This document shows, in pieces, positions 2 through 30,649 of a DNA stretch of 32,000 nucleotides. The DNA is from Candidatus Nanoarchaeia archaeon. GTDB lineage: Archaea; Nanobdellota; Nanobdellia; Woesearchaeales; JANQNC01. A program made the position numbers and the translations under genes. Each line of letters begins with the position of its first letter. Position 1 is the stretch's first letter. Where the stretch lies: the NCBI GenBank assembly GCA_028279745.1, contig JANQNC010000001.1, positions 1,140,001-1,172,000 of the forward strand, read 5' to 3'. The notes beneath the pieces were generated by a model. The model was given only the letters and a program-made list of their open reading frames with translations. It had not been told where the DNA came from and did not search any database.

Positions 2-220
2 TACGGTGAGTTCCCTGCATGTGCAGGTGACCTACAAGAAGGTGAAGCTATAATCGCAGTAAAAGAATACGGTGATTACACAGCACTTCTAGCAGCTGGT
101 TACTCAGGCGACGACACAAGAAGAGCTGGAATCGTTCTACACGACTACACTTCATACCCACTAAGTGGATCTGAAGTAAAAGTTACAGGAACAGATTTCA
201 CAAACATCGTTGTGGAATAA
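2..220 (+). CDS. 3' end of a secreted S-layer-like domain protein (partial; start lies outside the window)
   Basis: Open frame from the window edge to TAA at 218-220. The tail ...LLAAGYSGDDTRRAGIVLHDY... parallels ...LIVAGKWGEDTRVAGIAVAKY... at the end of the 5408-5944 protein. A T-rich terminator follows. Confidence 0.5.
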   Translation, partial: YGEFPACAGDLQEGEAIIAVKEYGDYTALLAAGYSGDDTRRAGIVLHDYTSYPLSGSEVKVTGTDFTNIVVE

Positions 221-17239: not shown

Positions 17240-18403
17240 ATGGTATACGAACCAAAAGAAGACAGCTACCTGCTTTTAGAACAAGTAAAAAAATATGCAA
17301 AAGGAAACGTTCTTGAGATCGGAACTGGAAAAGGATTGCAAGCAGTAGAAGCAGCAAAGAAAGCAGAAAAAGTAATTGCAACTGATGTAGATGACGAAGC
17401 AATCAAAATCTCTAAAGAAAGAGCAAAAAAAGAAAATGTACAAATTGAGTTCTTAAAATCAGACTTATTTGAAAAAGTAGAAGGAAAATATGATCTTATA
17501 ATATTTAACGCACCTTATCTGCCGACAGACAAACGGGATCCTGATGTCGCACTTGATGGCGGAAAACATGGATATGAGTTGTTGCAGAAATTCTTGGATG
17601 ATGTAGATGATTATATGGTTGCAGAGGGGAAAGCACTAATTGTGTTTAGCTCTAAGACAAATAAGAGAAAGGTACATGAGATTCTTGATGAGAATTTGCT
17701 TGAGTACAAAGAGGCAGCAAAAAAAACAGTATTCTTTGAAGACATCTACGTTTACTTGGTTTGGAAGAGTGATCTGTTAAAAGAGTTTGAAAAGAAAGAA
17801 TTATTTGGTGTTAAGTATTTAGCAAAAGGGAAAAGGAGCAAAGTGTATTCTTGTAATGACAAAAAGTATTGCATAAAAGTTGAAGACAGTTCTTCAGGCG
17901 CAATAAACAGAGCAGTAACTGAAGCAAAATGGTTAAAAAAACTAAATCAAAAAGGTATTGGTCCAAAGTTAATTGATGCAGAAGAAAACTATATCGTTAT
18001 GGAATATGTTGAAGGAGAAAGGATAGACAAGTTCTTGGAGACTGAGAAAGATAAACAAAAGATATTTGAAGTTGTTTTGGAAGTGTTGGGGCAGTGTAAA
18101 GAACTTGATGATATGAACGTAACAAAAGAAGAGATGCATCGTCCCTTTAAACACATTATTGTCGGAGAAAAACCAGTCATGATAGACTTTGAAAGATGCC
18201 ACACAGACCTAAATTCAAAAAATGTAACACAATTTTTAGACTATTTAACAAGTGGCAAAACAAAAAAATTACTTAGAGATAAAGGGATAAGGTTAGATAA
18301 AAAAGAAGTTGTAGAACTGTCAAAAAATTATAAAGACAAGAAAGATAAAGAAACATTCAACTTAATAACACAATATTTAAATAGTCAAAAAAACAATAAA
18401 TAA
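17240..18403 (+). CDS. Fusion protein: HemK-related (archaeal type) SAM-dependent methyltransferase + small atypical protein-kinase-like domain
   Basis: N-terminal half: VYEPKEDSYLL, VLEIGTGKG (SAM motif I) and IFNAPYLP (NPPY-type motif IV). C-terminal half: YLAKGKRSKVY (Gly-rich loop), YCIKV (Lys), TEAKWL, IVMEYVEG (hinge), HRPFKHIIVGEKPVMIDFERC (catalytic and DFG-equivalent region, non-canonical). Confidence 0.7.
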   Translation: MVYEPKEDSYLLLEQVKKYAKGNVLEIGTGKGLQAVEAAKKAEKVIATDVDDEAIKISKERAKKENVQIEFLKSDLFEKVEGKYDLIIFNAPYLPTDKRDPDVALDGGKHGYELLQKFLDDVDDYMVAEGKALIVFSSKTNKRKVHEILDENLLEYKEAAKKTVFFEDIYVYLVWKSDLLKEFEKKELFGVKYLAKGKRSKVYSCNDKKYCIKVEDSSSGAINRAVTEAKWLKKLNQKGIGPKLIDAEENYIVMEYVEGERIDKFLETEKDKQKIFEVVLEVLGQCKELDDMNVTKEEMHRPFKHIIVGEKPVMIDFERCHTDLNSKNVTQFLDYLTSGKTKKLLRDKGIRLDKKEVVELSKNYKDKKDKETFNLITQYLNSQKNNK

Positions 18404-27236: not shown

Positions 27237-28289
27237 ATGAAAAGTAAAATACGAATCTTATTGTTAAGCACTTTACTACTTTTGTTATTTGTTCCTGTAA
27301 TAGTTAAAGCAAACACTTGCGGCAGAGATAGTTACACGATGGCTTTTTTGTTGGTAAACGAAGAAGATAAAGAAATTCCTGAAGGCGTGATTGATAATCT
27401 TAATTCATTAAGAGTTATATTTTCGGAGTACTTTTATAACGCCACTTCGCAACTTGCAACAATAGATACTTCTGATGGGATCTATACTCTAAATATTACA
27501 GAGGATATGATCGAGCATCCAAATATAGATCTCCAAAAGGTGATGAATAAGTTTTATGATACTTATCCTGATGATTTTGATTTTGTTACTGTTTTTACAA
27601 CTTTTCCTTCAAGGGGAATGTTTCAGACTACGGTTAAAAAAAATCTTCCAGGGACAGGCGGGGGCATTTCAAATCTTTCTTCATATTATGGAAGCGATGA
27701 CAGACTACTTGGAATTCTTTTCATGTATAATTCTTCAAGACGTGAGCCTTCAGATTTGTTTTATCCAGGTTTTATAGGTGGCATGTTGCATGAACTCGGA
27801 CATTACTGGTGTTGTTATGCAGGTGATAATTTTGTAAGGGGAGAAGATAATGCACAACTGGAAATAATCCAGCAGGGGATTCATTATTATAGGGGTTTAG
27901 ACTCTCCATACGAAACTGGAACACCTATGAATTCAGATAACTGGATCAGCAATGGAGATGGAACATACAGGAGAGAAAACCAAGATGGCCCCGAAAAATA
28001 TCATCCCTTCACTTTGTATTTTATGGGTCTTCTACCCCGATCAGAATATGACACGAAATTCACAGTATATGATGCAGGCATACCTGGACAAGATTTTGAT
28101 GATCAAAATGCTGTATTCTACAAACAAGTCGACGTATGGGACCTAATTGCCGTTGAAGGAGAAAGGTGCCCTATTGAAAACAATTTTGAAGAGATCCCTG
28201 AAATATCAAAGACAGGTTTTATAGCGATAGTTATTGTGGTTGTAATTATGGGTGCTTTTTTAATCAAGAAAAATTCAATTTCTAAATAA
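27237..28289 (+). CDS. Secreted putative zinc metallopeptidase (HExxH) with PEI-type C-terminal anchor
   Basis: A CTTTAAATAA box at 27204-27213 places ATG 27237 at or near the transcription start. The signal peptide is MKSKIRILLLSTLLLLLFVPVIVKA. It has a single HELGH motif (GGMLHELGHYWCCY). The tail is IPEISKTGFIAIVIVVVIMGAFLIKK. Confidence 0.5.
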   Translation: MKSKIRILLLSTLLLLLFVPVIVKANTCGRDSYTMAFLLVNEEDKEIPEGVIDNLNSLRVIFSEYFYNATSQLATIDTSDGIYTLNITEDMIEHPNIDLQKVMNKFYDTYPDDFDFVTVFTTFPSRGMFQTTVKKNLPGTGGGISNLSSYYGSDDRLLGILFMYNSSRREPSDLFYPGFIGGMLHELGHYWCCYAGDNFVRGEDNAQLEIIQQGIHYYRGLDSPYETGTPMNSDNWISNGDGTYRRENQDGPEKYHPFTLYFMGLLPRSEYDTKFTVYDAGIPGQDFDDQNAVFYKQVDVWDLIAVEGERCPIENNFEEIPEISKTGFIAIVIVVVIMGAFLIKKNSISK

Positions 28290-28352
28290 CCTGAGGATTT
28301 TCTAAACCCTGTGACTGGGACTTGAAGTGAAGAAAATACGCCACCGCCCGGA

Positions 28353-28384
28353 CACCCATGATAAAAGATTTCTCTTAATATCAA
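28353..28384 (-). other. Predicted BHB (bulge-helix-bulge) intron in the T-loop, position 59/60
   Basis: Geometry: T stem (5 bp), 4-bp central helix (U.G, U.G, C-G, A-U), 3-nt bulge AAU, then inner helix UGAU/AUCA and a further 5-bp stem. The opposite 3-nt bulge UGU lies between the central helix and the T stem. Removing the intron restores the 7-nt loop UUCAAAU. Confidence 0.55.
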
Positions 28385-28416
28385 TTTGAACCGGGATATC
28401 CCGAAGGAAACCGGCT

Positions 28417-28475
28417 AACCTGGTCCTTTGTACAAAAGGATGCACTCAAGGCTTACGCTCCCAGATCTGTTTAGA
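28417..28475 (-). other. Predicted intron at or near canonical position 37/38 (3' junction uncertain)
   Basis: Something must be removed to join the anticodon loop CUUAGG to A-GCCGG (the 39-43 strand) plus the UUCG variable arm. The BHB is only relaxed (3 of 4 central pairs) and leaves one A.C mismatch in the anticodon stem. An alternative junction is at 28406. Confidence 0.3.
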
Positions 28476-28476
28476 C

Positions 28477-29106
28477 CTAAGATCGGCGCAATACCGGGTT
28501 ATGCGACGGTGGCATTTCTGATAACACTTGAGAACTTTCGCTCCTTTTTAAAGTTAACTGATACGACTTAAACTTGCTGTTCTGTAGATATGTCTTGACT
28601 TTCTTATCAAATGCCCAAACGTCTTTGATTAATTTTTTAAGATCATGAATCAAGTCTTTACTTGCAGAGTGGAATATTAAGTCCCCGTCTTTTTTTATTC
28701 CTCCGTCAGTTATTAGGAGTCCTAAAAAGAAATGTTTTTTTAATGAATTATTCCCATTTAAGATAAACGAAGGGATCTTAACATTTAACGCTTTTTTACC
28801 ACAGCATATCTCAAATTCATCTGTTATTGTTTTAAATGTCTTCACAGAGTATTTTTCGAATTCCCAGAGGGGTTGCTTATTTGGTCTTTTTCTGACCCTG
28901 ATTGTTCCTTTAATGTCGAATAACTTAGAAAATAATTCATAAAATAGTTTTACATATTCTTTATTGGTATTGTAAAAACAGATCGGATATATTCTATGTC
29001 CTCCTCCATTGTGTTTCACAGGGAGACAACCGTCACCTGCCAACATACCTAAAAACATAGCGAGATCATTAGATTTTTTTAATTTGTAAATTTTATTCTT
29101 TTCCAA
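28477..29106 (-). CDS. Free-standing double-motif LAGLIDADG homing endonuclease
   Basis: Two LAGLIDADG motifs, FLGMLAGDGCL and FFLGLLITDGGI, are about 100 aa apart, with typical K/N-rich beta-sheet segments. The start is TTG at 29106; the first ATG is codon 17. The last 12 codons overlap the tRNA gene. Confidence 0.85.
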   Translation of the reverse strand: MEKNKIYKLKKSNDLAMFLGMLAGDGCLPVKHNGGGHRIYPICFYNTNKEYVKLFYELFSKLFDIKGTIRVRKRPNKQPLWEFEKYSVKTFKTITDEFEICCGKKALNVKIPSFILNGNNSLKKHFFLGLLITDGGIKKDGDLIFHSASKDLIHDLKKLIKDVWAFDKKVKTYLQNSKFKSYQLTLKRSESSQVLSEMPPSHNPVLRRS

Positions 29107-29140
29107 CCTAATAAATAACGTGGTTGAATCTACTAATTAA

Positions 29141-29157
29141 GTTTTCTATTAGAAAAC
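29141..29157 (-). terminator. Hairpin (7 bp, 3-nt loop) downstream of the acidic-protein gene
   Basis: gttttct-att-agaaaac lies 27 nt after the stop at 29184, and AT-rich sequence follows. Confidence 0.4.
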
Positions 29158-29183
29158 GGAATTATTTCTGGGGGTGTTGAAAA

Positions 29184-30581
29184 CTATCCGAATATGTCGT
29201 CGTATTCGACTTTAGTTGTGTCAACTTGGTCTTCATTGACTTCTTGCTCTTTTGATTCTAAAACTTCTTCATACGGTTGTTTTTCTTGTTCTAATTCTTC
29301 TTCAGTTGTTTCCTCTTGAACTGTTTCTTCAACTTCAGATTCTTCAGTTGTTTCTGGTTCTGAAACTGGTTCTTCTAAGGTTGGAGTTTCTTCTTCATTA
29401 ATTTTTTCAATACTCTCTTCTGGAGCTTCTTCAATAGTCTCTTTAACTTCTGTAACTGGTTTATCTTCTACTTCTTCAACTGTTTCTTGTACTGGTTCGT
29501 CAACAGTTAATTCTTCAGTTTCTTCCTCTTCAGGCTCGTCTGAGTTTTCCATGGGGATGTTAGAAATGTCATCATCGTCAAAGTCCTCACGTTCTTGCAC
29601 TGGTTCGTCAACAGTTAATTCTTCTTCGGTTGTTTCTTCCTGGACTGTTTCTTGAGATAGTTCTTCTTCGGGTTCGTCTGTTGTTTCTGGTTCTGTTAGT
29701 TCCTCTGCTATTGGTTCTTCTGCTTCTTCTTTAGGCTCCTCTGGAGTTTCTTCACGTTCTTCTTCAATTGTATCTTCAACTTCGGTAACGGGTTCTTCTT
29801 CTACTTCTTGGATTGGCTCTTCAACAGTTTCTTCTACTTCAGTTGTTTCTTCACTAGGTTCATCTATAGAAATCTCTTCTGGTTCATCTTCAACTTTAGG
29901 TTCTTCTTCAGTTGTCTCTTCAACTTCGGGTTCTGAAACATCCTCGAATGTTTCTTCAATAGGGCCCAAGTCCTCGGGTTCTTCTTCTGGTTTTTCTATC
30001 TCTTCGATAACCTCATCTGCCACCTCTTTTTCCACCTCGCTCCCAGCTTCGTCATCAACATCTTCAATATCTAAATCTTCAACTGTTTCTTCTATCTCAG
30101 GTTCTGATTCTTCTACCTCTTCAACAGGTTCTTCTATAGAAATCTCTTCAGGTTCAGCAGAGATATCTTCAAAAGTCTCTTCTTCAGTTATAGAATCAGT
30201 TTCGGTTTGTTCTTCATTATCATAATCATATTCTCCTTTTTCAACATCAGTTTCTTCTTTAGGAGTCACTTCCTCAAGAGGTTCTTCAACTGTTTCTAAA
30301 TGGTCTGCAATAGGAACTGTTTCAACCTCTTCTTCCACTAGTTTCTCAACTTCAGGAAGGTTATCTTGAGGATCTTCAGGAATAGTTACTTCTTCATTAG
30401 AAGGTTCAATAATATTTTCAGTGTTTTCTTCTTTTTGGATCTCTGGATACTTCTGATCGCCTTTATTAGACATAATGTTTTCAGCCATACGCATTGCGTC
30501 TGTCTTAGAAGAAGCTAAACCATGTTCTTTAAGCTGTTTAGCTAGATTGTTAATCTTTTGAATATCACTTAAGCTTGTCAT
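29184..30581 (-). CDS. Extremely acidic E/T/P/V-rich repeat protein with a short structured N-terminal domain
   Basis: AGGTG lies 10 nt before ATG 30581; the track starts at TTG 30599. The N-terminus is MTSLSDIQKINNLAKQLKEHGLASSKTDAMRMAENIMSNKGDQ. About 400 aa of EE.E/TEE/VEE repeats follow, including the duplicated EELTVDEPVQE. The matching DNA repeats are 29483-29516 and 29591-29624. Confidence 0.6.
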   Translation of the reverse strand: MTSLSDIQKINNLAKQLKEHGLASSKTDAMRMAENIMSNKGDQKYPEIQKEENTENIIEPSNEEVTIPEDPQDNLPEVEKLVEEEVETVPIADHLETVEEPLEEVTPKEETDVEKGEYDYDNEEQTETDSITEEETFEDISAEPEEISIEEPVEEVEESEPEIEETVEDLDIEDVDDEAGSEVEKEVADEVIEEIEKPEEEPEDLGPIEETFEDVSEPEVEETTEEEPKVEDEPEEISIDEPSEETTEVEETVEEPIQEVEEEPVTEVEDTIEEEREETPEEPKEEAEEPIAEELTEPETTDEPEEELSQETVQEETTEEELTVDEPVQEREDFDDDDISNIPMENSDEPEEEETEELTVDEPVQETVEEVEDKPVTEVKETIEEAPEESIEKINEEETPTLEEPVSEPETTEESEVEETVQEETTEEELEQEKQPYEEVLESKEQEVNEDQVDTTKVEYDDIFG

Positions 30582-30649
30582 GTGACCCTTACACCTCAAT
30601 AAGAAATTTCTTTTACTCCTTTATAATACTTACTTTTTGCTTTTTAAAC

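Follow-up and report, generated by a model that had tools for sequence, protein, structure and literature searches.

It was in the Thermoproteales and in DPANN archaea that transfer RNA (tRNA) genes interrupted by several bulge-helix-bulge (BHB) introns at non-canonical positions became established (PMC4090602, PMC4033280, PMC5829648), and in DPANN genomes, including one of a Woesearchaeota, variants of the splicing endonuclease EndA with an extra loop were described together with many disrupted tRNA genes, which supports the plausibility of multi-intron splicing (PMC5829648). Here we describe a tRNA gene at positions 28,339 to 28,513, minus strand, of a window of 32,000 nucleotides (nt) from a Candidatus Nanoarchaeia archaeon (assembly GCA_028279745.1, contig JANQNC010000001.1, positions 1,140,001 to 1,172,000), together with the LAGLIDADG homing endonuclease open reading frame (ORF) that ends inside it. 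Like the window gene, the multi-intron tRNAs of the Thermoproteales and of DPANN (for instance ARMAN and Woesearchaeota) carry up to three short introns per gene, some of them outside position 37/38 and even in the T-loop, with strict or relaxed BHB motifs, and are overlooked by standard tRNA finders; they belong to lineages whose EndA has a specificity-broadening insert. The window tRNA is a further case of these DPANN genes, re-identified as tRNA-Ser(UGA). In the literature on multi-intron tRNAs we did not find this gene family, or its polymorphism of zero to three introns, described.

The endonuclease has its own set of described counterparts. I-DmoI and I-PorI are LAGLIDADG endonucleases encoded in archaeal rRNA BHB introns; these and the intein endonucleases (PI-PkoII) share with the window enzyme the fold family and the two LAGLIDADG motifs per chain, but the window enzyme is encoded in the 5′ flank of a tRNA and not in an intron or intein. 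In collaborative homing, as in the cyanophage F-CphI/psbA pair, a free-standing endonuclease stands beside an intron-bearing gene; here too the introns of the neighbouring gene do not contain the endonuclease, and these introns could interrupt the target and give immunity, but 16 unique tRNA-Ser genes are intronless, most of them beside an endonuclease, so that intron-based immunity cannot be general. Integrative elements that enter tRNA genes bring along a tRNA segment as replacement, and with them as with the cassette an old tRNA fragment stays behind at the junction and the intact copy comes from the incoming DNA; unlike them, the cassette has no integrase and no att-type exact repeat, and its junctions resemble one-sided homologous repair plus end joining. 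Phage T4 SegB is a free-standing GIY-YIG homing endonuclease encoded in the phage tRNA gene cluster (PMC2330249); it cleaves the tRNA gene of endonuclease-free relatives and is co-inherited with flanking tRNA DNA. Both systems place a free-standing endonuclease gene amid tRNA genes, but SegB belongs to another nuclease family and to a phage, and its gene is separate from the tRNA genes, whereas the window ORF ends inside the tRNA and appears to hold its promoter. Text searches turned up no LAGLIDADG family described as fused to tRNA-Ser with overlapping stop codon and embedded promoter, which is weak evidence of novelty.

Taken as a whole, the locus is very probably a DPANN tRNA-Ser(UGA) gene with four exons and three BHB introns, placed at the 3′ end of a LAGLIDADG cassette. 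On the comparative evidence given below, the element is a real, conserved archaeal tRNA gene, a tRNA-Ser(UGA) with three introns, predicted to accept serine and to decode UCN. Its precursor of 175 nt yields a mature tRNA of 84 nt after removal of 91 nt, with no CCA encoded, and is made up as follows.

28339..28513, minus strand: complete tRNA-Ser(UGA) gene, called Ser(tga) by ARAGORN in spliced form, with 99.8% of cloverleaf cells paired in 33 unspliced homologs
28484..28513, minus strand: exon 1, nt 1-29, with the acceptor 5′ strand, U8 C9, D arm, G26, and C27 C28 G29
28453..28483, minus strand: intron 1 (I1), position 29/30, 31 nt, AUCUUAGGUCUAAACAGAUCUGGGAGCGUAA
28445..28452, minus strand: exon 2, nt 30-37, G30 C31 C32 U33 U34 G35 A36 G37, that is GCCUUGAG, 8 nt
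28446-28448, minus strand: anticodon UGA, within exon 2
28417..28444, minus strand: intron 2 (I2), canonical position 37/38, 28 nt, UGCAUCCUUUUGUACAAAGGACCAGGUU
28385..28416, minus strand: exon 3, nt 38-59, with A38, GCCGG (the anticodon-stem 3′ strand), variable arm, T-stem 5′ strand, and U54-A59
28353..28384, minus strand: intron 3 (I3), T-loop position 59/60, 32 nt; removal of 28352-28383 yields the same product
28339..28352, minus strand: exon 4, nt 60-73, with U60, CCGGG, CGGUGGC, and discriminator G73
28330..28338, minus strand: U-rich tail UAUUUUCUU; T-rich tails follow the homologs as well

Read on the minus strand from 28,513, the precursor begins GCCACCG UC GCAU AACCCGGUA UUGC G CCG and ends CCCGG UUCAAAU (32 nt) CCGGG CGGUGGC G UAUUUUCUU. 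This gives a terminal helix of 7 base pairs (bp), GCCACCG/CGGUGGC, followed by a G and the U-rich tail, which is likely to be an archaeal transcription stop as predicted from its composition, and a 5-bp T stem, CCCGG/CCGGG, with a UUCAAAU loop broken by 32 nt. U8, A14, G18G19, and A21 are all there, together with a UUCG-capped 3-bp helix in the variable arm and a CUUAGG stretch, and with these every tRNA feature listed in the original prediction, which had been made by reading the DNA without database searches, is present on this strand. The GC content is 0.50 for the element and 0.64 for its exons against about 0.35 for the window, and the folding energy of the 175 nt is -71.7 kcal/mol, where shuffled sequences give -49.9 +/- 4.3 (z = -5.1) and none of 200 shuffles did as well. 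The raw window sequence gave no ARAGORN call and no Rfam match at the gathering threshold (at E <= 10, just SSRC41 and CRISPR-DR60, both noise), a blindness of standard scans that had been foreseen and is expected because the tRNA is multiply interrupted. After in-silico splicing of all three introns, ARAGORN recognises an 84-nt tRNA-Ser(tga), and the sequence folds into a canonical class II cloverleaf, with all 24 cloverleaf pairs (U13.U22 being counted as unpaired) and all three 4-bp BHB helices intact. A long variable arm and a G73 discriminator are serine identity elements, and both fit tRNA-Ser here: the variable region has 15 nt and its 3-bp helix covaries at all three pairs, while G73 stands in every homolog, as the parser demanded, and the last column of alignment A2, described below, is an invariant G.

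The comparison rests on two scans, a pattern scan of GTDB genomes that gave 22 true homologs, nearly all in metagenome-assembled genomes labelled Woesearchaeota, Nanoarchaeota, or Nanoarchaeia, and a metagenome scan based on the endonuclease that gave 80 more loci. Homologous genes are known from 80+ other contigs, and the comparison covered 84 related genes, for the most part of Woesearchaeota and further DPANN archaea. The set came to 85 unique tRNA-Ser precursors, 81-189 nt long; with a single splicing rule applied to all of them, ARAGORN called 81 Ser(tga), 3 Ser(cga), and 1 mis-splice. The rule mis-spliced L037 and L067, and L062 gave an odd 86-nt product; these three were left out of the list of mature sequences, and the unspliced precursor of L067 was kept in A2. 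The intron content of the unique sequences is as follows.

No intron: 16 of 85
I2 only: 33 of 85
I1 and I2: 25 of 85
I1, I2, and I3: 9 of 85
I1 only: 1 of 85 (L048)
I2 and I3: 1 of 85

The Woesearchaeota tRNA-Ser of L037 has, in addition, an extra insert of about 43 nt between the variable arm and the T stem, which may be a fourth intron site.

I1 is absent from many relatives, and the simpler genes can be read directly. With the Rfam tRNA model (gathering cutoff 29), the intronless L045 and L066 score 54-55 bits and L012, with I1 and I2, scores 37.7 bits, while L010, with the canonical intron alone, reads GCAGU CUUGAG CUUCUAAACAAGCA A ACUGC, has a long variable arm and G73, and by its sequence is a plain tRNA-Ser(UGA). 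The block GCGUAA↓GC CUUGAG (arrows mark junctions) does not vary between the window and its closer relatives and is flanked by two variable hairpins, and GCCUUGAG is invariant across the alignment. Directly past G26, three bases pair and covary with the three that precede the variable arm (CCG/CGG, AUG/CAU, CCA/UGG, CAG/CUG), and the GC ahead of CUUGAG pairs with the GC past A38; these pairings define an anticodon stem C27 C28 G29 ↓ G30 C31 that is split by I1, and place I2 at the canonical 37/38. In 33/33, position 30:40 is a G-C pair and 31:39 a C-G pair, and nt 28:42, in the middle of the outer stem, is GC in 13, CG in 8, UA in 8, and AU in 4. In A2, a structure-blind MAFFT alignment of the 33 unspliced I1-bearing precursors, 99.8% of cells are paired under a cloverleaf whose stem is split by I1 and I2, against 28-43% in slid controls, and 11 of 18 pairs change on both sides, which was reached by 0 of 500 shuffles.

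All three junctions can form two 3-nt bulges around a 4-bp helix, and all three introns have an inner hairpin (h′); as outer helix, I3 has the T stem, I2 the anticodon stem, and I1 a weak one or none, giving I1 the relaxed HBh′ form. The I1 motif consists of GCGC/GCGU with bulges CG↓A and AA↓G, and its central helix, G24-C27 with intron GCGU, has 4/4 bp in 33/33 homologs (G24 C25 G26 N27 with intron NCGU), being 100% paired with two covarying pairs; the local minimum free energy (MFE) fold around it gives the helix, a 3-nt bulge, and a 10-bp hairpin. This intron holds the CUUAGG stretch, within its hairpin, and the UAG stop of the endonuclease ORF. The I2 motif, CUUG/CAGG with bulges AG↓U and UU↓A, has 4/4 bp in the window and in 45/65 homologs and 3/4 in 16/65; in A2 it is 95% paired, and ARAGORN -i detects this intron once I1 and I3 are taken out. 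In the I3 motif, the T stem CCCGG is followed by a helix UUCA/UGGG with bulges AA↓U and UG↓U, and UGAUA..UAUCA forms the inner hairpin; a cut at 59/60, or equivalently at 60/61, restores UUCAAAU, and the local fold reproduces the T stem and the inner hairpin. Ten homologs have an intron at this site, with the consensus 3′ end UGAAAGU↓CCGGG and 4/4 bp in the central helix in 8/10, whereas the T-loop is unbroken in the majority (UUCAAAU/UUCGAAU). By inspection, I3 showed no association with the presence of the endonuclease.

The rival that survives best, improbable as we judge it, is that of a decaying or non-functional tRNA-Ser copy that rides with the endonuclease cassette while decoding is left to a gene elsewhere in the genome. 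Endonuclease cassettes do leave tRNA fragments behind, but the known relics are short and carry acceptor mismatches, unlike the full copy of the window with its intact cloverleaf pairs and BHB helices, and in endonuclease-free syntenic genomes the gene stands at the same place as the sole copy seen there.

The identity first proposed for the gene, a tRNA-Leu(UAG) with two introns, keeps hardly any chance. In that model a relaxed-BHB intron of about 59 nt (28417-28475) follows G37 of a CUUAGG loop, in addition to the T-loop intron. ARAGORN calls the corresponding splice tRNA-Leu(tag), and the serine model shares with it the T-loop intron and the three outer pairs of the anticodon stem; since ARAGORN accepts both splices alike, comparison alone decides. 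The loop CUUAGGU is found in the window alone, and its columns in the alignment are hypervariable and make up both arms of a hairpin, while the relatives have CUUGAG in 31/33 and CUUGAA in 2/33, and the I1-less L010, L045, and L066 show CUUGAG as a plain anticodon loop. The fourth anticodon-stem pair of the leucine model (30:40) would be A.C in 31/33 relatives, its intron would swallow the invariant GCGUAAGCCUUGAG block, and the discriminator G, which had been noted as odd for leucine, is the one expected in serine. What had been taken for a single anticodon-side intron is really I1 and I2 around the exon GCCUUGAG bearing UGA, which brings the total to three. The rest of the original prediction stands: an archaeal tRNA gene with several BHB introns, as the in-silico splice and the homologs bear out; a class II tRNA with a long variable arm, whose pairs covary; a 32-nt BHB intron at 59/60 (28353-28384), shared in position with the ten relatives; and a mature length of 84 nt after removal of 91 nt, confirmed by the sum of the exons.

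Upstream of this tRNA-Ser(UGA) gene, and overlapping it, lie the parts of the cassette.

28477..29106, minus strand: LAGLIDADG homing endonuclease ORF with two motifs, 209 amino acids (aa), TTG start, recognised by Pfam match and homologs
28545..28552, minus strand: TATA-like box TTTAAAAA, inside the codons for SYQLTLKR and 39 nt upstream of tRNA +1
29107..29183, minus strand: endonuclease cassette leader with hairpin GUUUUCUAAUAGAAAAC, homologous to the leaders of L002, L008, and L015

The ORF matches Pfam LAGLIDADG_3 (E = 8e-12, 45.6 bits, cutoff 22.5) and LAGLIDADG_2 (E = 8e-7, 29.5 bits, cutoff 25); it has 64 homologs in the protein collection, G24 D25 and T133 D134 G135 are invariant in the endonuclease alignment A1, and the nearest solved relatives are archaeal intein endonuclease domains (PI-PkoII). 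An exact look-up of the 209-aa ORF gave no match because gene callers chose a later ATG, which yields the 193-aa P0001. About 80 endonuclease relatives, with 35-70% identity, stand almost always directly 5′ of a tRNA-Ser gene, and on the contigs of the 64 homologs the neighbouring genes differ and the same kind of RNA comes right after the ORF. The window ORF lacks a stop codon of its own and runs on to the UAG in I1, overlapping the tRNA over 28477-28513, so that its last 12 codons, MPPSHNPVLRRS followed by the stop, come from tRNA nt 1-29 plus intron 1. The stop codon lies 15-100 nt inside the tRNA in 63/68 unique endonuclease-bearing loci, the remaining 5 being frameshifted, and across loci the tRNA is read in three frames (51, 13, and 4 loci), which indicates that tails such as MPPSHNPVLR and AEVAQSGTAQ are by-products and not selected peptides.

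The endonuclease is present in 7 of about 22 genome-derived homologous loci. In the syntenic arrangement of TFB followed by the tRNA, it occurs between them in L002 and L024 and is absent in L035, L032, L027, L029, and L017, and a 3′ remnant of 39 aa, TATA-like box included, survives in the endonuclease-free L016 and L017. Such sporadic presence at a homologous site, together with decayed copies, is as known for homing endonucleases. We found no immunising differences between the 5′ halves of endonuclease-bearing and endonuclease-free tRNAs: L024 and L027 share nt 1-30 exactly, and a single G.U position separates L036 from L033. In L049 an endonuclease precedes a Ser(CGA) gene.

That the element is not a tRNA at all, but either a folded region at the 3′ end of the endonuclease mRNA or a piece of a larger intron (group I or giant BHB) with its 5′ exon upstream of the ORF, would account for the overlap of ORF and RNA and for the copy of tRNA nt 1-16..20, resembling a 5′ exon, that L002, L045, L053, and L054 carry upstream of the cassette, but is very improbable, as no group I intron matches at E <= 10 in 28200-28650, the RNA, or the ORF 3′ end, at least 14 homologous tRNA genes lack any endonuclease, the upstream copies mismatch the 3′ acceptor strand (L002 GCCGACG against CGGUGGC) where the downstream copy pairs perfectly, and in the window such an upstream copy is missing. 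On the first three of these counts we rejected a group I intron or a giant intron containing the endonuclease.

The overlap of the tRNA-Ser gene and the ORF seems to extend to the promoter. The most conserved C-terminal motif of the endonuclease, SYQL(T/N)LNK, is coded by TATCAGTTAAATTTAAATAAG, and in most loci with an endonuclease TTTAAATA stands at -39 relative to tRNA +1 (the range being -32 to -48), while endonuclease-free alleles with a detectable box have it mostly at -31 to -35. We infer from this a candidate tRNA promoter inside the endonuclease coding sequence. The tRNA would then be transcribed from the internal box, and the endonuclease would be translated only from longer, unprocessed read-through transcripts. 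At its other end, the cassette leader of the window abuts the stop codon of an acidic protein gene, with the junction TCGG↓ATAGTTT as in L008. That neighbour (29184-30599, minus strand) encodes an extremely acidic, repetitive protein of 471 aa, rich in E, P, V, and T, with no family match.

By analogy with known archaeal tRNA splicing, EndA would cut the precursor at six bulge sites and an RtcB-type ligase would join the exons, with CCA addition coming after splicing; neither EndA nor RtcB was found among the window ORFs scanned. For I1 an alternative fold would have to form first, in which the D-stem nt 24-25, G26, and C27 pair with the intron GCGU.

Several observations weigh against the reading we prefer. 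The cloverleaf-plus-BHB fold of the whole precursor reaches -51.6 kcal/mol against an MFE of -71.7, and is thus 20 kcal/mol worse. The MFE structure of the whole precursor says little about the BHBs: it contains the helix, bulge, and hairpin of I1 and the inner hairpin of I3, and lacks the T stem. The I1 BHB requires an open D stem and has a weak outer helix, and two of the pairs in the I3 central helix of the window are G.U. On the endonuclease side, the window ORF starts at TTG in a poor ribosome-binding context, the TATA region upstream of it is weaker than in L002, and we infer the cleavage site and the mobility of the enzyme solely from relic junctions.

These junctions take several forms. 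In L002 (at about 2863-2879), L045, L053, and L054, a native promoter and old tRNA nt 1-16..20 stand right before the cassette, where 0.1 would be expected by chance; the L053 relic has a D-arm type other than that of the working copy, which indicates that the cassette brought its own tRNA 5′ part. The endonuclease-free L021 and L028 have a 5′ relic of 12-14 nt behind the promoter, at -71 and -64 from the tRNA, respectively, followed by 51-58 nt of filler. The relic junctions lie at tRNA nt 13-20, and these direct copies of 12-20 nt from the tRNA-Ser 5′ end look like relics of a resident gene broken in the D loop. In L008, L047, and L048 an inverted copy of the old 3′ end, made up of the last 10-13 nt of the tRNA and the reverse-complement T-rich terminator, lies upstream at the left edge of the cassette (at -765 from the tRNA in L008). 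The window has no clear relic at its cassette edge, and a weak inverted copy at 29184-29200, on the left edge. In L008, L017, L033, and L036 the tRNA 3′ end is repeated 26-50 nt further downstream; the repeat in L017 comprises a whole T arm, still with its T-loop intron, from a different allele. Right after the tRNA-Ser of L008 (at about 2790-2920) there is also a second tRNA-like gene, GCCCCGUAGUCUAGCGGUC...GGGAAUUCGAAUCCUGGCGGGGCUA, with at least two long inserts and no ARAGORN call.

As patterns, the relics fit one-sided homologous repair after a cut in the resident tRNA, predicted from the relic junctions to fall between about nt 17 and 49 of the tRNA, and the cassette appears to spread by cutting resident tRNA-Ser genes and carrying its own tRNA copy along. 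The full proposal is that of a mobile cassette specialised on tRNA-Ser, which would cut the resident gene, install itself with its own tRNA and promoter, and leave old pieces behind, either the promoter with tRNA nt 1-16..20 at one flank or 3′ pieces at the opposite flank; the BHB introns that build up in just these tRNA genes may interrupt its target or hitch-hike with it. We offer it tentatively and think it rather unlikely. If true, it would provide a DNA-level route for the gain and spread of archaeal tRNA introns, with a protein gene, a promoter, and a tRNA on the same bases.

The surroundings of the tRNA-Ser gene are archaeal, given that the window encodes TFB, Gins51, an S-layer domain protein, and an FtsY-like signal recognition particle (SRP) GTPase. 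At 17240-18403, plus strand, lies an ORF with an N-terminal methyltransferase domain and a RIO-type kinase-like region. Among the relatives, L018 (3399-3483) and L023 (6129-6210) carry an intronless tRNA-Ser(CGA) near the interrupted tRNA-Ser(UGA), on the same contigs.

In summary, this tRNA adds one well-supported case to the multiply interrupted tRNA genes of DPANN and shows why automatic annotation makes such genomes seem poor in tRNAs, and its relatives, with zero to three introns at fixed sites, form a clean natural series for the gain and loss of BHB introns. The more interesting part is the association with the endonuclease, a conserved free-standing LAGLIDADG family tied to one tRNA species. 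The arrangement offers a testable model of how selfish nucleases can settle in essential RNA genes and leave them alive and of how tRNA processing could throttle endonuclease expression, and it may possibly model the origin of archaeal tRNA introns and of partial tRNA duplications.

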